Source: a virus (taxonomy: Duplodnaviria > Heunggongvirae > Uroviricota > Caudoviricetes). Taken from it: a DNA stretch of 64,000 nt. The stretch lies in the IMG/VR virus record IMGVR_UViG_3300028042_000002, positions 66,050 through 130,049 of that record; one strand, 5' to 3'. The notes beneath the pieces are model-generated. The model did not search any database. It was not told where the DNA came from and saw only the letters and a program-made list of their open reading frames with translations. Positions 2,557 to 63,994 of this stretch are shown in pieces (the first letter of the stretch is position 1; each line of letters opens with the position of its first letter). A program made the position numbers and the translations under genes.

Positions 2557-4347
2557 TTATTTCAGATTAGGCAATTTCATTACATCTACATCATTTTTAC
2601 CTAATTTAAATGTAGTTGTATTCATCAATAAATCAATTTCATTATCATTAATTTTCATGGACTTATCTTTAAATTGCATATCATTTTTAATGTCATCTCT
2701 ACTTTTTAACCATCCTTTCAATAAACCGTGTTGAACATTTAATAATTTCATAAAATCTTGATTAAATTTAATATGAAAATTGCCATTTTTATAACTTCGC
2801 ACAGCCATGAAAATAAATTGTTCATCATTATCATATTTAGTACAGTAATAATTATGAATAGAGTTGTCATTATATGATAAAGATTTCCATGAAGTAATCA
2901 TATTAAATCCTAAATTTTCGGCAATAATCATAATATCTTTAATGAAATTAGTTGCACGTTCAGGTAAATTAGTATGATTATCACATTCATATTGTGAATA
3001 ATAGCTTGTATAACCAGTCAAAATGATACGATAATCTAATGTAACAGCACCATAACTATCTGCCTTTCTCCACATTGTATTATATTCATCAAAATATTTC
3101 TTATTACTTTTATATGCAGTAGTTGAAGCGTCATTCATCATACATTCAAAAATATTAATTAACTGTTCATCGTAATATTGATTAGCAATTTTTAATATCA
3201 TTCCTGTAATTGCATAACAATTTTCATTATTAAAATCCAGTTGATTATTATTATCCATTGTTGATAAAATCTTACTTAGTGTTACACTTGTTAAATGTTT
3301 GGTAATAGGTGTATAATTCTTAAATAATTCAGTCCAATATTGACGTTTTAATGATGATAATTTCTTCTTTAAAGTATCTGAAATATTGGTTAATTTTACG
3401 TCAAACTCTTTAAGTACATCTTTAGGAATTTGTACTAACTGTTTGTAAACATTAAACAATTTGTCATTATCTCTAGTATATAATTGGACTAAAGCTCCCA
3501 CAATTGATTGACATTTTACAATTTCATTATCTAAACGTTTGGCAAATTCATCCTCACTTGATTTAGTGTTATCAATATCTTCATTATATTGATTAGTGGT
3601 ATCATGAGTAGCCACAAAATTATTAAATAATAAATCAAATGGATTAACTTTAACCGAATTAATTTTAATATCTTTAAAATTTGAGGTGTAATCAACTTTA
3701 ATAATATCAATATTTGCCCGTGCCTTACGTTCACCATCTAAGAAATTATCAGAATGAATTACAGTTACAATTGCTTTACGTGATTTAATAGCTACATTAA
3801 TTTCATGATTATCTTTCCATCTATCTGGTACAATTAAATACATTAATTTACAATTACTTTCATTTAATAATTTAATCATAAATTGTTCATATTCCGAATA
3901 AGGTGGATTACAGAAAACAATTTCCATAGGTTTATCAACTAATGAACATGAATGTAAATCTGCACCAATAAATCTAATATCATTATCAGGGTTAGTAATA
4001 TAATTATCAATTAAAAGTTGTGATTTTTCAATAGCATATAATTCTAAATTGGGGATAATATTATTAATTGTAATATAATCCGCAAGGTGTAATAAAGCGA
4101 CACAATTACCAGCACCAATATCCAAAATTGAATAATATTCACGATCATGGAAATTATTAGATCTATAACTATCTTCAAATTGATTATAATGTTTAGAAAT
4201 ATTATCAGTAATAATATCTAACATATCAGTTGTAGTTGGGTAAAATTCAAAATCTTGGTTAGATTGTTTTAATTGTTTAACAAGTTGAACAGTTGAAGTC
4301 ATAATAATTAAATAATAAATGTGAATTAAGGAGCTGTAATAATACAA
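2557..4347 (-). CDS. SAM-dependent N6-adenine/N4-cytosine (NPPY-class) methyltransferase, large form
   Basis: Motif I 'LDIGAGNCV' and motif IV 'FCNPPY' in the N-terminal half. 596 aa. Confidence 0.6.
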   Translation of the reverse strand: MYYYSSLIHIYYLIIMTSTVQLVKQLKQSNQDFEFYPTTTDMLDIITDNISKHYNQFEDSYRSNNFHDREYYSILDIGAGNCVALLHLADYITINNIIPNLELYAIEKSQLLIDNYITNPDNDIRFIGADLHSCSLVDKPMEIVFCNPPYSEYEQFMIKLLNESNCKLMYLIVPDRWKDNHEINVAIKSRKAIVTVIHSDNFLDGERKARANIDIIKVDYTSNFKDIKINSVKVNPFDLLFNNFVATHDTTNQYNEDIDNTKSSEDEFAKRLDNEIVKCQSIVGALVQLYTRDNDKLFNVYKQLVQIPKDVLKEFDVKLTNISDTLKKKLSSLKRQYWTELFKNYTPITKHLTSVTLSKILSTMDNNNQLDFNNENCYAITGMILKIANQYYDEQLINIFECMMNDASTTAYKSNKKYFDEYNTMWRKADSYGAVTLDYRIILTGYTSYYSQYECDNHTNLPERATNFIKDIMIIAENLGFNMITSWKSLSYNDNSIHNYYCTKYDNDEQFIFMAVRSYKNGNFHIKFNQDFMKLLNVQHGLLKGWLKSRDDIKNDMQFKDKSMKINDNEIDLLMNTTTFKLGKNDVDVMKLPNLK

Positions 4348-5084
4348 TAAATTTAATCAAATTAAATAAATAATTATATGTAAATTAACAATACAGTTAA
4401 TATTTATTACATTATGGCTTACGCCTGCGTGTGATAATTCAAAGAAATAAAGTTAATTACATTATTAAGCTATTTAAAGTGGTTAAATAATTTAAATATA
4501 GCCTACTATCAATTTAATATAATAATTCCATTTAAGAGCATTTAACCTAATTAAATCGTATATTTACTATGGCGGAAATCTTATCAAATATAAATTAATA
4601 ATAAATAAATATATAATTATAAGAAATATGACTATGAACATAACAAATAATACAATAAACATGATGATATCAAGATAGATACCACTATAAACAATATAGG
4701 TTAAAGAATAATATAATCAAACATTAGAATAATAATAAATTAATATAATAACAATATAGAATAATATTTAAACAATATAGTTCACTATGGTAATGATAGG
4801 AATATAAATCATAAATGATTAACTGCTCTATACAGCAATACTATTATGTTGCTTTTTTTTATTTTTGGAGATGTTGACTAGAATGACAGCTAGACCCCCT
4901 ATATTAGCATTTACTAATGAAAACTTTCGTGGGATTTGACCCAAAATTAGAAATATTACAATGTAAGTTGTTGATTTATAAGTAATATTAAAAATAAATT
5001 AATAAAATATTGACAATTTAACCTGTATTCATATAAATAATGATATAATTAAAATTCTTATTGATAATAATTAAGGTTGATTAA

Positions 5085-5270
5085 ATGAATATTCCAGTTA
5101 AATTGAAAAAAAGTATTAAAGGTCGCCCGCGTATAGAAATTGATATTGATTTAGCAATAAAATATCTAAATGGTGGGTACAATCTTTCGAGTGTGGCGGA
5201 GGAGATGGGAATTGCAAAATCTACATTATGTTTGAAAGTTAAACAATATAAAGAAATCCATAAATCATAA
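5085..5270 (+). CDS. small HTH DNA-binding protein (module copy A)
   Basis: 'KGRPRIEIDIDLAIKYLNGGYNLSSVAEEMGIAKSTL' is a resolvase/IS630/AlpA-like HTH. Paralogs at 18316-18528 and 63163-63402. Confidence 0.6.
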   Translation: MNIPVKLKKSIKGRPRIEIDIDLAIKYLNGGYNLSSVAEEMGIAKSTLCLKVKQYKEIHKS

Positions 5271-5338
5271 ACATAAAAAAGCTAGAAAGGTAATTACATT
5301 TTACCAATCTAGCCAACATGTTCACATTAAATATTACA

Positions 5339-5655
5339 AGGCATCTATCGTAAGAGTCCCTACTTTTGCGAAAGCTCATTTTGGGCATCCCAGCCCAAGT
5401 TCGCGGCAAAAGCTTAACGGGACTAATTATAATCTTCGATGCCCCGATTCGTCCTGCGTCCGTGACGTCTTCGTACAAGTATCGTTTCACTCGATGAACT
5501 ACGACACCACTACCTCAAATGACCTTTACGGCGATGAGAGCTGTTTTTCACCTTCTTCGTCAGTTCACTCTCGTTCTCAACTACGAATGCGCTAAACAGC
5601 ATCGCCTATCGGGGACTAATCGCCTTCGTTTCACTCTCCATGGCGATCAGCGCAT
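5339..5655. other. GC-rich (about 50% GC) noncoding island; candidate structured RNA or origin with TTCACTC and CGGGACTAAT direct repeats
   Basis: Abrupt composition shift. Long imperfect hairpin (ggcatc..gatgcc, agtccc..gggact, cttttgc..gcaaaag). TTCACTC occurs three times. Confidence 0.45.
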
Positions 5656-7003
5656 GAACAAAACTTCTATTAAACATCTTCTTTTAAGCGAATTAAATAA
5701 ATATAAAACTCGTTTATCGGATGAACCATCATTATACATCAATAATACTATTTATAACAAGTTAAAAGTTGTGAATATTAATAATTTTAAGAAGTATTAC
5801 CCAAAATTAACCCGAGTTGAAATCACAAATTTATTATATCTTATTATAAATCATAACTTTATCCATTTAAAGCAAGATGATAAACAAGGTTATAATATCA
5901 TAAAAATTTATGAAGTTTCAGGAATAAACGTGCAAGTTGGCAGAAAGATATTTACTTCTAAATTATTTACCGAACTTTTAAAATTATTACTTGACAATGA
6001 AATTATTATCAAAGTTAAAAATTATCAAAGTAAGTCACACTCCAACCAATATAAATTAAATGATAATATTATTAGCAAGATGACCACATGCCAAGGTAAA
6101 ATTATTAAATTATCGCCATTCGTCCTAAAATATAAAATTAAATTTTGCACATTAAAAATAGTTAAAACTGTTAAAGATGATATATATCCATACAAATATT
6201 TATTATTAAGCACACTAAAAACTTTAAATACTGTCCAATTTCCAACCATTGAAGAAGTTGAAAAACGATTAGATGAGGCTGTTAAAAATGGTGAAAGTAA
6301 CAAAGGTAAAATATATAAAAATTATAATGATTATAGAAATCTTGTTGACAAATCTAAATATACAAACATTCAAAACATTAAAAAAGTGTTTTTATATTTA
6401 ACAACTGGATTGATATTTTCAAGGAGTGAAGAGTTTGGCAGAATTTATACATCATTTAATATGATACCAACTATCACTCGCAATATGTGTAAATTAAATA
6501 ATAATGAATTAGTTGGATTAGATTTTAATGCACTCCATCTTAATATTGCACAATCATTAGCAGTTAAACATTATGACCATGATATTAAAGATTATAATGA
6601 AATTACTCATGATAATATTGCATCCTATATGAAAATATCACGTCAAGAGGTCAAAATAGACAATTTAAGCCTACTTAACCGAAATTTGGAAGATGGGTAC
6701 GACTATAATAATAAACGTTGGGAAAAAGGCTTAATAGGAACTCCTACAGTAAATTACTTTTTAGAGTGCATCCCAGTTTTATATAATTATATTGTACAGA
6801 AAGGCGATAAAGGTATTACAAAATTTCTATTTAATATTGAAACTAAATTGATGGATAAAATTGCTATGAAATTGTTATATAGTGGTATTAATTTTATGTA
6901 TATTTTTGATGAGATAATGGTAGAGTCGAAGTATAAAATTAATGTTAGAAAGTTGATGCTGATGGAAGCTAAAAGAATGTGGATATTGGCAGGAGTTGGA
7001 TAA
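5654..7003 (+). CDS. large conserved protein of the 3-copy module (possible primase/replication-initiator component); start reset to MNKTS
   Basis: About 60% identity to the 61826-63166 ORF. The N-terminal extension in the ORF track lies in the GC island and is not conserved in the paralog. Confidence 0.55.
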   Translation: MNKTSIKHLLLSELNKYKTRLSDEPSLYINNTIYNKLKVVNINNFKKYYPKLTRVEITNLLYLIINHNFIHLKQDDKQGYNIIKIYEVSGINVQVGRKIFTSKLFTELLKLLLDNEIIIKVKNYQSKSHSNQYKLNDNIISKMTTCQGKIIKLSPFVLKYKIKFCTLKIVKTVKDDIYPYKYLLLSTLKTLNTVQFPTIEEVEKRLDEAVKNGESNKGKIYKNYNDYRNLVDKSKYTNIQNIKKVFLYLTTGLIFSRSEEFGRIYTSFNMIPTITRNMCKLNNNELVGLDFNALHLNIAQSLAVKHYDHDIKDYNEITHDNIASYMKISRQEVKIDNLSLLNRNLEDGYDYNNKRWEKGLIGTPTVNYFLECIPVLYNYIVQKGDKGITKFLFNIETKLMDKIAMKLLYSGINFMYIFDEIMVESKYKINVRKLMLMEAKRMWILAGVG

Positions 7004-30605: not shown

Positions 30606-33600
30606 TTGAAACAGTACTTAAATATAACCCAAATTAAGAATAAAATTTATCATAAATATATTGATGAAAATGCTCAAAGGCAGGTAGAATTTACAGATAT
30701 TAAACCTGAATTATTCGTTAAAACCAATAGTGATTATGAAACAGATTATAAAAGTTTTAATGGTGGATATCTTGATAAAGTTGATTTTAATTCTATTAAA
30801 CATGCTCAATCATTTGTATATGAATATAAAGACCATATAGGATTTGATATTTACGGCAATCGTAACTACTGGGCGCAATTTATACATGAATACTACCCTG
30901 ATATTATTAATTATAATAAATCATTATTAAATGTAGTTTCATTAGATATTGAAAATTTGATAGGAGATGGTCGAACGTCACCAACAGAAAGTGCAATGTT
31001 AGCTAAAAATGAAATCACAGTAATTACACTTGGATATAATGGTAAATATTTCACTTTTACAACTAAACCATTTGAAAACAATGATAAAAATGTAATCCAT
31101 ACTCAAGCAAAATCGGAACAAGAATTATTATATAACTTTTTAATGAAATGGCGTGAAATTGACCCCGATATTATTACAGGGTGGTTTATAGACCAATATG
31201 ATATACCATATATTGTAAATAGAATTAGAAACTTGTTAGGTGATAAATATGTTAAATGGTTAAGTCCAAGCGGTAAACAATTTGTGGGGGATGATAGTGT
31301 AAAATACAATGATTATATTCATGATAATAAACATTATGATATATTAGGTATTACAACTTTAGACTACCTTGCAATGTACAAGAAATTTACATTCACTAAA
31401 CGTGAAAAATATTCATTAGATTTTATATCTCATATTGAATTGGGTAAAAATAAGCTAGATTATTCGGAGTATAGTAATTTAGATGATATGTATAATAATA
31501 ATCCACAAAAATACTTTGATTATAATATTATAGATGTAAAATTAATTGATGAGCTTGATGAAAAGTTAAACCTTATCGAATTATGCTTAAACCTTAGCTA
31601 TAAAAGTAAGATTAACTTTGATAAAGTATTTTCACAGGTTCAAATGTGGGATAGTTATATTTATCATGAATTAATGAAAGATAATATTATTATACCACCA
31701 AAGCAAGACCATAATAAATCAGAAAAATATGAAGGTGCGGCAGTAATTGAACCTAAAATTGGTTTGCATAATTGGGTAGTATCATACGACCTTGATGGAC
31801 TTTATCCACATTTAATGATGCAATATAATATTTCACCTGAAACAATCAGAAAAATATTGGATGGTGTAACAGTTGATAAATTGTTAAATAAATCTATAAA
31901 TGTTAATGAATTATTAGAAGGTGATGACGATTTAACATTATGTGCCAATGGTGTGACATTTAGTAAAACTGGTGGAATTATTCCTAAATTAATGAGGGAT
32001 ATTTATAAAGAACGGAAAGAAGTTAAGCAACAAATGTTGAAATATGAACAAATGTTAACAAATGATAAGAATAACAAAGAGTTACAGAATTTATATAGTA
32101 AATGTAAGGTTACTCAAATGGGATTAAAAGTATTTTTAAATTCATGTTATGGGATGCTAGGTAATCAATATTCAAGGTATTATAATATTAATATTGCCGA
32201 AGCTATCACTTTAAGTGGACAATTATCATTAATGTGGATTAAAAATGATATGAATACACAATTAAATAAAGAATTTAAAAATGTTGATGCTGATTATATT
32301 ATTGCGGGTGATAGTGTAGGTTATGAAAGTGAAGTTCATATTAGAAAACTTTTAAATAATGGTAATTATGATTATAAATCTATTAAAATTAATGAATTAT
32401 TTAATATGGTTGATATTGATAATAAATATTTAAATGATGATAAAGGTAAGCAAAGAATATTCAATATGCAAGGTTGGGAGACTTTAACTTACGATGAAAC
32501 AATTCATGAAAATTGCTATAAACCTATTAAATATATTTATCGTCATAAAGTAGATAAGCCAATTTGGAAAGTAAATATTAATAATTGCGAACATATTATT
32601 GTTACGGATGACCATAGTTTAATGGGATATGTCAATACTAAAAATAGATTAAATCATAAGTCTTCAATATTTAAGCGTGTTAAAGTTAAAGAATTAAACA
32701 AGACATCCTTAATTCAAAATAAACATTTGAAAATTCCATTATTAGAGTATGATAATATTGATAGTGATGAAGTGTTGAAATATCAATTCTTAGGTTACAT
32801 GTTGGCTGATGGTAATTATAATCATAAAATGTGTGAATTGAGTGTTGGAATTCAAGATGTTAATGAAATTGAAATTAAATTATTTAAACCATTATTAAAA
32901 GCTAACTTAATTACACGATATACAATCAGAGAAAATCGCCACGATGTTAGGATATATGGTGTAAATATGTTTAATTTTTGTGGTGATATTTGCAATAGAA
33001 CTGGAAAGTTAGAAACTTTGACAAATATTGAAAATTTAGAAGAATATAAAATTAAAGCTTTTTTAAGCGGGTATTTCACTGGAGATGGTCATGCTGGAGT
33101 AACTAACATAAAAGTTTCATCTATACATAAAAATATAATATTAAAAATTAAACGATTATTATTATTAATTAATATTTCTAGCACAATCTTTAAAGATAAC
33201 ACTGAAAATTCTTATAATGGCGTATTTAGTGGAACATTTAATTATGTATTAGTAATAAAAAGTGATTTTAATGAGGTTGCATTTATCTTAAACCGTAAAA
33301 ATGATTATAAAGATTATAATGATACCCCACGTAGAAGATATTTTAAAAAAAATGGATATAATTTTACTCTATCAACAATTAAAAATATAACACCTGTTAA
33401 TAATTACAATGAATTTGTTTATGATATTGAAGTTGAAGACACCCATACATTTTATGCTAATGATTTATTAGTTCATAATACCGACAGTATTTACACTACA
33501 TTTAACCCAATAGTTAAAAACTATGATGATAATTTATCTAACCATGAAATCACTATTAAATTAGATAAATTTTCAAAGTCTAAAATTCAACCAATGATTA

Positions 33601-34295
33601 ACCAATCTTACATAAATTTAGCAGAATATATGCACGCTAAAGAACAAAAAATGAATATGAGTAGAGAAGTTATTGCTAGTCGTGGAATTTGGAGAAAGAA
33701 GAAAAATTATGCTTTAGATGTTTATAATAGTGAAGGTGTAATTTATAATCCACCAAAATTAAAAATCATGGGGTTGGAAAGTGTAAAATCATCAACTCCT
33801 CAATTATGCAGAATTGCTATTACTAAAATTATTGAAATCATGTTACGTGAAGATGAACTAACTTTACAAGAATTTGTATCAAAATTTAAAATAGAATTTA
33901 ATAATGCTCCACTTGAAGATATTGCCAAACCAACAGGGGTTAATGATATCGTAAAATGGGATTATGATGATAAATTTAATAAATGGGGATTTACAACTAG
34001 AACACCTGCTCACGTTAAAGCTAGTATTACATACAATAGATTAATTGATGAATTAGATTTATACACTAAATATAAAACTATTAATAATGGTGATAAGATA
34101 AAATATTTATATTTATTAAAAAGTAATCCACTTTTCACAAATACAATAGGGTTTCCTGATGTTCTACCATCTGAATTTAAACTTAATGAATATATTGACT
34201 ATAATAATCAATTTTATGTTACATTTAAAAAGCCATTGGATAGTTTATGCAATATAATAAATTGGAAATCTGAAAAACTTAAAACATTTTTTTAA
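30606..34295 (+). CDS. gp43: family B DNA polymerase (T4 gp43-like) containing an intein
   Basis: Exo motifs ('LDIENL'), 'GWFIDQYDIPYIVNR', 'SLYPHLMMQYNISPETI'. Motif C is split: ..IIAGD|intein|TDSIYT. Confidence 0.9.
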   Translation: MKQYLNITQIKNKIYHKYIDENAQRQVEFTDIKPELFVKTNSDYETDYKSFNGGYLDKVDFNSIKHAQSFVYEYKDHIGFDIYGNRNYWAQFIHEYYPDIINYNKSLLNVVSLDIENLIGDGRTSPTESAMLAKNEITVITLGYNGKYFTFTTKPFENNDKNVIHTQAKSEQELLYNFLMKWREIDPDIITGWFIDQYDIPYIVNRIRNLLGDKYVKWLSPSGKQFVGDDSVKYNDYIHDNKHYDILGITTLDYLAMYKKFTFTKREKYSLDFISHIELGKNKLDYSEYSNLDDMYNNNPQKYFDYNIIDVKLIDELDEKLNLIELCLNLSYKSKINFDKVFSQVQMWDSYIYHELMKDNIIIPPKQDHNKSEKYEGAAVIEPKIGLHNWVVSYDLDGLYPHLMMQYNISPETIRKILDGVTVDKLLNKSINVNELLEGDDDLTLCANGVTFSKTGGIIPKLMRDIYKERKEVKQQMLKYEQMLTNDKNNKELQNLYSKCKVTQMGLKVFLNSCYGMLGNQYSRYYNINIAEAITLSGQLSLMWIKNDMNTQLNKEFKNVDADYIIAGDSVGYESEVHIRKLLNNGNYDYKSIKINELFNMVDIDNKYLNDDKGKQRIFNMQGWETLTYDETIHENCYKPIKYIYRHKVDKPIWKVNINNCEHIIVTDDHSLMGYVNTKNRLNHKSSIFKRVKVKELNKTSLIQNKHLKIPLLEYDNIDSDEVLKYQFLGYMLADGNYNHKMCELSVGIQDVNEIEIKLFKPLLKANLITRYTIRENRHDVRIYGVNMFNFCGDICNRTGKLETLTNIENLEEYKIKAFLSGYFTGDGHAGVTNIKVSSIHKNIILKIKRLLLLINISSTIFKDNTENSYNGVFSGTFNYVLVIKSDFNEVAFILNRKNDYKDYNDTPRRRYFKKNGYNFTLSTIKNITPVNNYNEFVYDIEVEDTHTFYANDLLVHNTDSIYTTFNPIVKNYDDNLSNHEITIKLDKFSKSKIQPMINQSYINLAEYMHAKEQKMNMSREVIASRGIWRKKKNYALDVYNSEGVIYNPPKLKIMGLESVKSSTPQLCRIAITKIIEIMLREDELTLQEFVSKFKIEFNNAPLEDIAKPTGVNDIVKWDYDDKFNKWGFTTRTPAHVKASITYNRLIDELDLYTKYKTINNGDKIKYLYLLKSNPLFTNTIGFPDVLPSEFKLNEYIDYNNQFYVTFKKPLDSLCNIINWKSEKLKTFF
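32313..33479 (+). mobile_element. intein (389 aa) with LAGLIDADG homing endonuclease, inserted in DNA polymerase motif C (DTDS)
   Basis: Starts with Ser after AGD. Block B 'IIVTDDHSLMGY'. LAGLIDADG motifs 'FLGYMLADGNY' and 'FLSGYFTGDGH'. Blocks F/G 'VYDIEVEDTHTFYANDLLVHN', followed by +1 Thr. Confidence 0.85.
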
Positions 34296-61825: not shown

Positions 61826-63166
61826 TTAGCTTACATTGGATAAAATATTTAAATTTCTGCTACAGTTAATCATCGTATCATATAGGACTATTTTATTTTT
61901 AATTTCAACCATTAATTCATCAAATACATATAAAAAAGACATACCTGAATATAATAATACCTTGGCAATCTTATCCATTAATGAACTTTCATTATTAAAT
62001 AAAAATTTAGTAATACCTTTATTACCCATTTCCAATATATAATTATATAAAACTGGAATATGACGTTGAATATAATTCATAGTTGGAGTATTTAATGAGC
62101 CTTTCTCCCATCGTTCATTTTTATAATCATAACCATCATTTAAATTTCTATTAAGGATGCTAAGATTGTCTATTTTGACTGATTGGCGGGTAACATTCAT
62201 AGAGTTTGCAATATTATCATGAGTTATTTCATTATAATCATTTATATTATGGTTGTAGTGATTAACTGCCAAAGCTTGTGCGATATTAAGATGTAAACCA
62301 TTAAAATCTAATCCAACTAATTTATTATTGTTAAGTTTGCACATGTTACGGGCAATGGTTGGTAATAAATTAAATGATGTATAAATTCTGCCAAAGTCTT
62401 TACTAATTGAGAATATTAAATCATTGATTAAGTAGTTGAAAGTGTTTTTAGAGTTTTCAATATCAATATATTTACTTTTATCTTCCATTTTAATATATTG
62501 TTTATGGTTTAAATATACTCGACCCTTGTTAATTTCGCCATTCTCAACCGCTAATTCTAACCTTCTTTCAAATTCTTCAATAGTTGGAAATGTAATATCT
62601 CTGTAAGTATAAATACAACCTAATAATAAATGTAAATATTTGTACTCTGCGTTTGCAATAATATTATTTAATTTTAATATAGAGGATTTAGTTTTATATT
62701 TAGTTACTCGTGGTGATAATCTAATATCTTTATGTTTACAATTATAACGTTTACTTATGATATTATCATTTAATTTATATTTATTTGAACTTTTACCTAC
62801 TTTATACGATGCAGTCTTATAAATAATATTGTTATTGGTTAATAATTTTAATAATCGTGGAAATAATATCCTATTGAATATATTTTTACCATTTTCAAAA
62901 TTTATTCCAGCCTCTTCTGCAATAATAACATTTGTATCTATGCGTTCATCTCTTTTTACGCTAATAAAATTATTCTGAATTAATAGATACATCATATCGG
63001 TAACATCTTTCTTACTATATGAAGTGTTACCAATTTTAAATTCTTTAACTTTAATCTTAAATAATTCCCTATATATTGCATTATTAGCATATATGTAATT
63101 ATTTTTATCCAATGTCTTTTTATATTCAATTACAGCATTTTTTAATTTGTGTTTAATATCAATCAT
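61826..63166 (-). CDS. large conserved protein of the 3-copy module (paralog of 5654-7003)
   Basis: About 60% identity over about 330 aa ('GRIYTSFN..PTI.RNMCKLNNN.LVGLDFN.LHLNIAQ'). Confidence 0.6.
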   Translation of the reverse strand: MIDIKHKLKNAVIEYKKTLDKNNYIYANNAIYRELFKIKVKEFKIGNTSYSKKDVTDMMYLLIQNNFISVKRDERIDTNVIIAEEAGINFENGKNIFNRILFPRLLKLLTNNNIIYKTASYKVGKSSNKYKLNDNIISKRYNCKHKDIRLSPRVTKYKTKSSILKLNNIIANAEYKYLHLLLGCIYTYRDITFPTIEEFERRLELAVENGEINKGRVYLNHKQYIKMEDKSKYIDIENSKNTFNYLINDLIFSISKDFGRIYTSFNLLPTIARNMCKLNNNKLVGLDFNGLHLNIAQALAVNHYNHNINDYNEITHDNIANSMNVTRQSVKIDNLSILNRNLNDGYDYKNERWEKGSLNTPTMNYIQRHIPVLYNYILEMGNKGITKFLFNNESSLMDKIAKVLLYSGMSFLYVFDELMVEIKNKIVLYDTMINCSRNLNILSNVS

Positions 63167-63402
63167 TTTTTTAATTTTCCTAAATTTGGTTTCTTTGCTT
63201 TCATTGTTCTTTTTGGTTTTAAATTATGTTCCTTTCTATACGCATGAACCCTCTTATATAACGTGCATTTATTTACACCTAATGCATCGGCAATACTTTC
63301 ATGAGTATATCCTTCGTCCTTCAATTTCATAACCAATTCAATATCAATAACAACACCCCATGCAGTTTGTTTTAATTTACTTCTATCTAAATCCGAATTC
63401 AT
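63163..63402 (-). CDS. small HTH DNA-binding protein (module copy C)
   Basis: 'EGYTHESIADALGVNKCTLYKRVHAYRKE' is paralogous to the other two HTH proteins. Confidence 0.6.
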   Translation of the reverse strand: MNSDLDRSKLKQTAWGVVIDIELVMKLKDEGYTHESIADALGVNKCTLYKRVHAYRKEHNLKPKRTMKAKKPNLGKLKK

Positions 63403-63904
63403 AATATTACCTAATTTGTTTAATTGTTATGGTATTATAACAGTATTTATACATATTGAATTTAAAGTTGAATATAAAGTGTAAAAAATTATATAATAAT
63501 ATAAATATCTACCAATTTTGAAAAGTTTTAATAAATTAATTATTATATAAATCAATGACTTATAATTTTGTAATTCTGAACGTTTTATTATTACAAAAGT
63601 TGAAAATGTATAGTCTAGCTGTCATTCTAATAATGTTTACCCAAAATTGAAAATGACCCACATTATATATATGGGGCATATGTAAATATGCTTTATTAAT
63701 TTGTTTCATAAAGAAACATAATTATCAAATATTCTTTAAGAAAACATTGTACTACTATGATAAATATTATTGATATGATTATTGTCTTACTATACTGTTA
63801 AATATTGAATGGATTATCTTGATAGTACTAATCTTGATTATTATGATAATAAATTTAATTTAAATTTTGATTATATGTCAGAATATAGTGAATATATAGT
63901 GAGA

Positions 63905-63994
<90 letters not shown>

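Follow-up and report, generated by a model that had tools for sequence, protein, structure and literature searches.

The window analyzed here, i.e., the whole stretch of 64,000 nucleotides (nt) taken from the viral record IMGVR_UViG_3300028042_000002, belongs to an uncultured T4-like myophage with an overall guanine–cytosine (GC) content of 25.3%. Pfam searches on this window detected the gp23 major capsid, the gp20 portal, the tail sheath, the large terminase and the ribonucleotide reductase, together with two RNA ligases and a family-B DNA polymerase with an intein. The window harbors two related modules, A and B, which are inverted relative to each other and each comprise a small helix-turn-helix (HTH) open reading frame (ORF) and a protein of ~450 amino acids (aa). 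Directly upstream of the large gene of module A lies the island of about 305 nt to which this work is dedicated. Below, we present the composition of this island, the repeat family to which it belongs, its conserved fold and the phage genes around it. Taken together, these observations led us to consider, with roughly four chances in five, that the island is a non-autonomous mobile element of a Methylococcales-type (methanotroph) host that became inserted in the phage genome.

The segment from 5339 to 5655 has a GC content of 48.9% versus 25.3% for the whole window. The GC-richest 305-nt stretch of the window begins at 5349 (49.5%), and the best stretch of this length outside the island region, located within the major capsid gene, reaches 40.3%. 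An original prediction made from the letters of this DNA had described an isolated island of about 50% GC in 25% GC DNA that was restricted to the A copy of the duplicated module, and both points held: the block is absent from module B in the A/B alignment, and the family profile described below matches the window once (5346-5666, E = 3.8e-62). The imperfect hairpin of ~105 nt noticed in the same prediction is also real, as 5338-5446 folds at -34.8 kcal/mol (z = -4.0) and none of 200 shuffles folded as well; the island as a whole is modestly better than its shuffles (z about -1.9, on either strand). Among the nested stems proposed for this hairpin, agtccc/gggact, cttttgc/gcaaaag and gggc...gccc are conserved and covary in relatives, but the outermost one, ggcatc/gatgcc, is not conserved, and its 5′ arm (5340-5345) falls outside the element, in phage sequence resembling the displaced ribosome-binding region. 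Three TTCACTC repeats had been reported and were located at 5486, 5564 and 5630, with two further occurrences elsewhere in the 64 kb. The other direct repeat had been misassigned, given that CGGGACTAAT occurs a single time and GGGACTAAT is the sequence found twice (5419 and 5612). These repeats do not represent iterons. One GGGACU makes up the 3′ side of helix 1, and its second occurrence lies in the family-wide GGGGACUAA motif.

The searches that had been proposed for known RNA classes were negative. No Rfam 15 model (riboswitches, RNase P, tmRNA, 6S, introns, ribozymes and HEARO included) was matched at gathering score anywhere in the window. At E ≤ 10, the region 5200-5750 gave no hit and eight loci holding family copies gave no relevant one, and ARAGORN detected 0 tRNA or tmRNA genes across the window. 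The proposed BLASTN search of the island was productive: against plasmids, it returned eight places on the Methylomonas plasmid CP157006 and one on a Methylobacter plasmid.

Repeat family and insertion sites

Three aligned copies exhibited homology from end to end, with the blocks GGGCATCCCAGCCC, CCCCGATTCG and CTATCGGGGACTAA in common and the terminus TCAGCG. Next, a pattern scan covered 185,579 species genomes, and the figures that rest on it refer to the matches listed. Among these, nearly all true ones belonged to methanotrophs that live as symbionts in the gills of Bathymodiolus japonicus and B. platifrons, and the remaining true ones came from Methylicorpusculum and from metagenome-assembled genomes (MAGs) of Methylococcaceae. 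Loci of Xanthomonas, Pseudomonas, Pirellulales and Cytophagales were considered as family members and discarded as chance pattern matches, given that none matched the profile. Using nhmmer, at least 174 copies were found in 117 genome loci, a number that reached at least 329 with the family profile, and a metagenome scan contributed 140 further copies. The family recovered thus totals at least ~470 copies, which spread through Bathymodiolus symbionts, Methylomonas and Methylobacter plasmids, Methylococcaceae MAGs and many metagenomes; a supposed absence from bacteria is already contradicted by the bacterial genomes that carry it. The unit is 255-315 nt long, and its GC content in metagenome loci ranges from 0.45 to 0.63 (mostly 0.50-0.58) within flanks of 0.31-0.62, i.e., the composition of the element is about constant whatever the surrounding genome. 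The closest relative of the phage copy, at locus L185, is 93% identical over the first 106 nt and 80% identical overall, and sits on a 1.3-kb contig with flanks of 45% GC.

Neither a cognate protein gene nor an autonomous, ORF-bearing version was found in any of the ~470 copies, and no neighboring ORF was consistently present, the neighbors being mutually unrelated. Searching the conserved motifs as strings returned nothing relevant in the searchable literature; in view of this and of the lack of a matching Rfam model, the repeat family appears to be undescribed. We also observed a second repeat family, starting with CAGGCGCGCCATGCTACCTCAC, in four loci of the B. japonicus symbiont (L020, L066, L086 and L115). 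Its central and 3′ domains are common to those of the element and its 5′ domain is different, and it was found nested in copies of the first family as well as inside an IS1634-like transposase gene.

Since the symbiont genomes are full of other repeats, many copies lie within sequences that also exist uninterrupted, which enabled the comparison of filled and empty sites. In 41 ungapped filled/empty pairs, no target bases were duplicated or lost, and the inserted unit extended from two bases before GGGG through CAGCG. The NNNG that follows CAGCG is owned by the target, and its G at position +4 was invariant in all of these pairs. The 5′ end consists of a random flank followed by T (58-75%), C (82-90%) and GGGGAGTCGCTA, and the 3′ end reads TTTTCAGCG followed by three variable bases and the invariant G. 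Target positions +1, +2, +3 and +5 are 49-57% conserved, resulting in the 3′ flank consensus AATGA, and the triplet from +2 to +4 was ATG in 44, TTG in 37 and AAG in 27 of 260 distinct sites. No terminal inverted repeats were observed, as the ends TCGGGGAGTC and TTTTCAGCG are unrelated by inversion. The orientation is fixed relative to the G four bases downstream, and the specificity is one-sided. Shorter variants deprived of the middle were also found, in which the first 60-100 nt and the last ~70 nt are kept. The 5′ boundary of the phage copy was set against the L185 copy and the canonical TCGGGGAGTC start, and the 3′ boundary was set at the family-wide CAGCG end.

The phage site and a few symbiont sites had suggested a targeting of start codons, a possibility that the control did not support: at the 260 distinct bacterial sites, 2% of the NTGs in the flanks are the start of an ORF of 100 aa or more versus 9% of control NTG triplets. 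Insertions within long ORFs displayed no sense bias (12 sense, 10 antisense), and no co-orientation with the upstream gene was detected (23 same, 27 opposite).

An insertion sequence (IS) of the IS110 family was examined as a possible parent of the repeat. At locus L145 (contig JYMV01005756.1, 9787-10969), this 1.2-kb IS is inserted in a repeat copy at ATTCGTC-CT-GCGT, with CT at both junctions, and two sequences within its 190-nt left end, ATTCGTCCT and ACGCAG, resemble bridge-RNA target guides for this very site. The position of the gene inside the copy, the CT core on both sides, the AT-rich insert and the guide-like site matches show an insertion into the repeat, and the IS110 element was rejected as its parent. 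Moreover, the traits of an IS110 element or a bridge RNA (a DEDD recombinase, a sequence-specific target and a core dinucleotide at both junctions) were not found in the family, whose flanks are random and whose core is not repeated, the lone IS110 gene being the one inserted into the repeat. A TGTATCT footprint is visible at the same site in another copy (L173), and the phage copy retains the L145-type target intact.

Conserved fold of the element

Seventeen diverse copies, mutually less than 92% identical, were aligned (alignment A4), and a fold model was obtained with RNAalifold plus one helix added by inspection, totaling 52 pairs in nine helices. In this alignment, 94.9% of the cells were paired and 27 of the 52 pairs had changed on both sides. 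Out of 500 shuffled controls, none matched the observed values on four of five measures, and one did so on the fifth. When the 3′ partners were slid by 1-3 columns, 33-46% of the cells were paired and 2-9 compensated pairs were counted. These results indicate that the description of the element as a conserved fold with compensatory changes, either in RNA or in single-stranded DNA, is right. The predicted architecture is that of a long 5′ hairpin, a closing helix around a variable center and a covarying domain, and a 3′ hairpin ending in CAGCG.

The 5′ hairpin (22 pairs, 94-99% paired) has six pairs with compensatory changes. The closing helix exhibits the compensatory variants CCCCAG/CUGGGG, CCCGGA/UCCGGG and CCGGU/ACCG(C)GG. 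The central-to-3′ domain covaries strongly, with compensatory changes in 13 of the 16 pairs family-wide and five mismatches in the phage copy, and such changes were also observed in five of the nine pairs of the 3′ hairpin (98.7% paired; AAAAUC/GAUUUU, AUCGCC/GGCGAU, CCAGCC/GGCUGG). Overall, the phage copy retains 47 of the 52 pairs. On the + strand, G-U cells outnumber A-C cells (19 vs 10), a weak pointer to this strand as the one that would fold. Additionally, the apical loops of the domain-III hairpin (A4 columns 222-240) and of the 3′ hairpin (columns 289-305) are alike, with the consensus TTCGCTnAnGCTCCG occurring twice. In the phage copy both loops (5564-5572 and 5630-5638) read TTCACTCTC, hence the two seem to have changed together; they could represent a pair of binding sites for one factor.

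The interrupted phage module

In silico deletion of 5348-5652 joins AAGGCATCTA to CATG and brings a Shine-Dalgarno-like AAGG (5338-5341) to 7 nt before the ATG. In module B, an AGGA is located 11 nt before the ATG, and there is an overlap between the HTH ORF and the large gene's start codon. The spacing restored upon removal, in combination with the layout of module B, suggests that the insertion split the translation start region of module A and uncoupled its two genes. The coordinates of all these features are collected in Table 1.

The large protein of module A (449 aa) is 55% identical to its module-B paralog, and the alignment runs from residue 6 in A to residue 4 in B. A word search of 5.8 billion proteins returned these two paralogs only, which characterizes them as orphans, and a profile search added 207 remote relatives that align from the ATG at 5654. 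No Pfam family was found for the region common to these 207 relatives, one of which has a GIY-YIG/NUMOD domain. The annotated forms of 489 and 494 aa, starting at 5534 or 5519, over-extend into the element, and two public assemblies and pipelines have in this manner added 40-45 element residues to the large gene. The original prediction had regarded the N-terminus at 5519 and an ORF at 5239-5490 as artifacts, in agreement with the alignment of the paralog and of the 207 remote homologs from the ATG at 5654 and with the position of the extension wholly within the element. It had also stated that the lack of a covarying structure, together with a homolog bearing an in-frame N-terminal extension, would speak against its description of the island; the fold covaries, and the homologs start at the downstream ATG.

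An AlphaFold2 model of the 449-aa protein, generated from a 51-sequence alignment, reached a predicted local distance difference test (pLDDT) value of 90.8. The best 50 of its 70 PDB fold matches (E ≤ 0.001) were all family-A DNA polymerases (PolA-type), with low TM-scores of 0.21-0.38. The invariant residues of the protein are D290, K334/N342 and Y416-x-x-D419, which we take to resemble the PolA motifs A, B and C. A YxDE-like motif had raised the possibility of a retron- or DRT-type noncoding RNA (ncRNA) upstream of a reverse transcriptase. This candidate was rejected on account of the family-A polymerase-like fold, the existence of a module B without the RNA and the nature of the island as a mobile repeat.

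The insertion is present in two independent assemblies, namely a 130-kb JGI contig, whose 494-aa gene call takes in element-encoded residues, and a 58.6-kb ENA contig (metagenome ERZ27262682), which terminates 4 nt inside the 5′ boundary of the element, at 5352. De Bruijn assemblers stop where one repeat has other left-hand contexts in a sample, and such a stop at the edge of the element would be expected if the same repeat sat in other contexts in the sample. The ENA contig also ends inside an 85-nt T run with one interrupting base (63908-63992, a minus-strand poly-A), just outside module B; this run may represent a genuine homopolymer, the end of a genome or an artifact of the assembly. The capsid protein of the phage has at most 51% identity to that of any isolated phage, with T4-like phages of Stenotrophomonas as the nearest, and its closest counterparts (51%) come from phages of Gammaproteobacteria.

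Other features of the window include a 16-nt motif, AGAATGACAGCTAGAC, which occurs exactly twice, at 4880-4895 (+) and 63613-63628 (-), upstream of each module, and may be a common regulatory or recombination site. A 596-aa ORF (2557-4347, -), encoded on the other strand directly upstream of module A, contains a DUF4942 domain and weakly matches a methyltransferase. The intein of the family-B DNA polymerase, in which a LAGLIDADG homing endonuclease domain was detected, splits its gene (30606-34295).

Table 1. Features of the phage copy of the element and of modules A and B (window coordinates)
Feature	Position	Strand	Basis
Module-A small HTH ORF, 61 aa	5085..5270	+	Weak HTH_7 and HTH_Tnp_1 matches
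AAGGCATCTA, probable original ribosome-binding region of the gene that follows, at present 305 nt away from the ATG	5338..5347	+	Inferred
Element copy, 305 nt, 49% GC, non-coding dispersed mobile repeat	about 5348..5652	+	From TCGTAAGAGTCCC... to ...GGCGATCAGCG
5′ long hairpin, predicted helices 1-3 (GAGUCCC/GGGACU, UUUUGC/GCAAAA, apical GGGC-AUCCCA-GCCC)	5356..5423	+	A4 columns 8-77
Closing helix, 5′ strand CCCGA, pairing with UCGGG at 5609-5613	5443..5447	+	A4 columns 99-103 with 273-277
ATTCGTCCTGCGT, intact copy of the IS110-family insertion site known from L145	5447..5459	+	Comparison with L145
Central-to-3′ domain, predicted helices 5-8, inside the closing helix	5530..5606	+	A4 columns 192-270
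Closing helix, 3′ strand UCGGG, within the conserved CUAUCGGGGACUAA motif	5609..5613	+	Family alignment
3′ terminal hairpin G.CU.AUCGCC / GGCGAU.AG.C, ending in the invariant CAGCG (5648-5652)	5614..5651	+	A4 columns 278-325
Target tetranucleotide NNNG, here CATG; ATG 5654-5656 is the downstream start codon	5653..5656	+	41 filled/empty pairs
Module-A large gene, 449 aa, orphan, family-A DNA-polymerase-like fold	5654..7003	+	Paralog, homologs, predicted structure
Module B, HTH ORF (79 aa) and 446-aa paralog (61826-63166), no island; uninterrupted reference	61826..63402	-	A/B alignment

Origin of the island and comparison with known systems

According to the explanation that we favor, a non-autonomous element of methanotroph origin, the unit would move without duplicating or deleting its target and in a fixed orientation to the G four bases downstream. 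Given that the deletion variants retain only the two ends, these are probably needed in cis, and given that no copy encodes a protein, the mobilizing enzyme must act in trans. The prokaryotic families that leave no duplication are IS200/IS605, IS91, IS607 and IS110; among them, single-strand HUH elements fit best, considering the hairpins near both ends, the asymmetric target motif and the end-only deletion derivatives. A single-stranded intermediate, following the peel-and-paste mechanism of IS200/IS605 and of palindrome-associated transposable elements (PATEs) or another HUH-type mechanism, can be put forward as a tentative proposal, to which we assign clearly less than even odds. In the phage, the insertion would have taken place a single base before the ATG of the polymerase-like gene of module A, parting this gene from its ribosome-binding site as well as from the HTH gene upstream. 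Judging from this arrangement, a reduced or altered expression of the module-A copy, with module B intact, would be the most likely outcome, and the element probably represents a passenger and not a function of the phage.

Several observations weigh against this explanation. With the exception of the 93% identity over 106 nt with L185, the phage copy is ~75-80% identical to the sampled copies, which implies that the donor lineage is unsampled and that the transfer was not very recent. The gap between a phage of 25% GC and a host of 38-55% GC is large; T4 and E. coli are separated by a GC gap of comparable size. In the flanks and copies scanned, no transposase was linked to the family, and a search for an IS200-type TnpA in ~1.5 Mb of flanks found none, using an approximate query that makes it a weak test. 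The terminal hairpins differ from each other and the target has only one invariant position, two traits that are atypical for IS200/IS605. Lastly, the 47 of 52 pairs kept by the phage copy could point to continued selection in the phage rather than to a passenger.

Other explanations were weighed against the same evidence. The family might constitute a previously unrecognized class of mobile structured RNA, either a standalone guide scaffold for an RNA-guided enzyme (OMEGA-like, reading the 5′ flank and the NNNG) or an RNA aiding its own mobility, and the phage copy would then be functional; we regard this as unlikely. Slightly less likely again is its narrower version, in which the element is a standalone scaffold similar to the omega-RNA of the IscB/IsrB-type OMEGA systems, with the 5′ flank as guide, NNNG as target-adjacent motif (TAM), the nuclease encoded elsewhere and the phage copy acting as an inert or a programmed guide. 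The IsrB omega-RNA is similar in size (~300 nt) and in layout, which comprises a stem region at the 5′ side, a closing helix that resembles a nexus and carries inserted helices, and stem-loops at the 3′ side; IsrB TAMs are NTG, NTGA or NTGG, to be compared with the AATGA consensus and invariant G of the 3′ flank, and standalone omega-RNAs are known (PMC9581776). The IscB omega-RNA lies at the right end of its transposon with the guide outside the element, and the TAM of GstIscB, TTCAT, corresponds to ATGAA in the opposite strand (preprint 10.1101/2023.03.14.532601). The excess of G-U over A-C cells on the + strand is also in line with an omega-RNA. Such a role is thus possible in view of the IsrB-like size and layout and the NTG-type motifs; yet the HEARO model (RF02033) failed, as did every other Rfam model even at E ≤ 10 in small search spaces, and no IscB- or IsrB-like ORF was found beside any of the ~470 copies. 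Moreover, the invariant G stands at +4 and not at +3, and the orientation of the copies is not biased with respect to the upstream gene, unlike that of IscB elements.

A domestication of the element by the phage, as a structured 5′ leader, a regulatory ncRNA of the module-A gene or a protein-binding site, seems improbable to us. It would account for a sense-oriented copy placed exactly between ribosome-binding site and ATG, for the fixation in two assemblies and for a pairing kept despite 20-25% divergence from relatives, and the enrichment of the loops in AT suggests that the element has resided in the phage for long. However, start codons are not favored at the 260 distinct bacterial sites, the evidence comes from a single phage genome and module B manages without the element. 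We attribute a very low probability to a self-splicing intron-like element (group I or IStron-like) whose excision would restore the spacing between ribosome-binding site and ATG. Since the insertion leaves no target duplication, a precise RNA excision would restore the transcript, T4-like phages carry group I introns, and one Methylobacter copy is located 60 nt upstream of tnpB in an IStron-like arrangement. Nevertheless, no group I or group II intron was matched in Rfam, the conserved 3′ G belongs to the target and not to the element, the random 5′ flanks make an internal guide pairing impossible and long ORFs display no sense bias. The neighboring TnpB is ordinary, being 66% identical to TnpBs of Klebsiella plasmids that are devoid of the element, and has its own left-end hairpin, so that its link to the element was dismissed as a coincidence. 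An intron within the IS1634-like transposase gene at locus L086 was likewise discarded: only one of the five copies of that IS carries the element, which amounts to an ordinary insertional disruption. Least credible of all is an iteron replication origin or a real extension of the coding region of the large gene at its N-terminus. The three TTCACTC and two GGGACTAAT repeats, the in-frame ORF from 5519 that led gene callers to 489 or 494 aa and the polymerase-like nature of the adjoining gene speak for it, but in relatives the repeats are not preserved as such, the block in its entirety is a mobile insertion that module B lacks, the homologs and the paralog start at the 5654 ATG, and the island evolves by compensatory base-pair changes and not codon-wise. 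Of the three options that the original prediction had offered for such an island (structural RNA, origin with iterons or recently acquired DNA), the acquisition and the structured character are retained in the form of a mobile repeat insertion with a covarying fold, and an origin with iterons finds no support.

Under the favored explanation of a mobile element acquired from a methanotroph, the island links, at the sequence level, an uncultured and very AT-rich T4-like phage to methane-oxidizing Gammaproteobacteria (Methylococcales, including the clade of Bathymodiolus mussel symbionts). The insertion points to methane-oxidizing bacteria as the likely host of the phage; to our knowledge, few phages are known for methane-oxidizing Methylococcales. 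The repeat family is abundant, with hundreds of copies per symbiont genome, and its covariation is strong for a 300-nt element. The identification of its mobilizer or of its transcription could add a member to the HUH or OMEGA systems, or something outside both. The insertion also explains an annotation error, i.e., the lengthening of the downstream gene by 40-45 residues in two pipelines, and provides a natural experiment in which one of two paralogous polymerase-like modules has a split translation start region. What makes the locus interesting is the repeat family and the link to the host, more than any function in the phage.

The nearest described kind of element is that of the PATEs, non-autonomous derivatives of IS200/IS605 moved in trans by the Y1 HUH transposase TnpA. 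As in PATEs, the element is multi-copy and protein-less, has neither terminal inverted repeats nor target-site duplications, bears a subterminal hairpin within a few bases of each end, inserts in a specific orientation beside a short motif (on the other strand, 3′ of a TCATT-like C-N-N-N), is often nested in other repeats and has end-only deletion derivatives. It differs from them in having one invariant target position instead of a motif of 4-5 nt, in the dissimilarity of its end hairpins, in a covarying structure that spans the whole 300 nt and not the ends only, and in that no TnpA, TnpB or IscB partner was found in the copies and flanks scanned. With the HEARO or IscB/IsrB omega-RNA (RF02033, including standalone forms), the element has in common a multi-helix fold of ~250-300 nt on a mobile element with many ORF-less copies, a variable 5′ flank and a short G-containing motif directly downstream (IsrB TAM NTG or NTGA); it is set apart from it by the failure of the RF02033 covariance model, by the lack of a nearby IscB/IsrB gene, by the +4 position of the G and by the lack of co-orientation with upstream genes.

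Classical MITEs (miniature inverted-repeat transposable elements) possess terminal inverted repeats and target-site duplications, and the element has neither (0 duplications in 41 pairs); it differs from this classical type and, on several points, from PATEs as well. Its resemblance to MITEs concerns the presence of a small host repeat in a viral genome, which, according to a Nucleic Acids Research article of 2024 on MITEs common to phages and their hosts (PMC11602168), can be used as a virus–host link. The ssr9 module of ISPpu9 (IS110 family) is a small-RNA gene that spreads as a selfish module via the IS transposase (PMC12288879), and the element is comparable to it as a standalone, small-RNA-like module that multiplies without a transposase of its own and in which one copy (L145) is tied to an IS110-family element. 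However, ISPpu9 and ssr9 insert at specific REP sites, whereas the flanks of the element are random, and the L145 element is not the parent of the repeat but has inserted into it, with a CT core on both sides and guides of its own that match it. Repeats common to phages and hosts (PMC11602168) and selfish RNA modules relying on an IS transposase (PMC12288879) are already known, and what appears to be new here is this particular repeat family.

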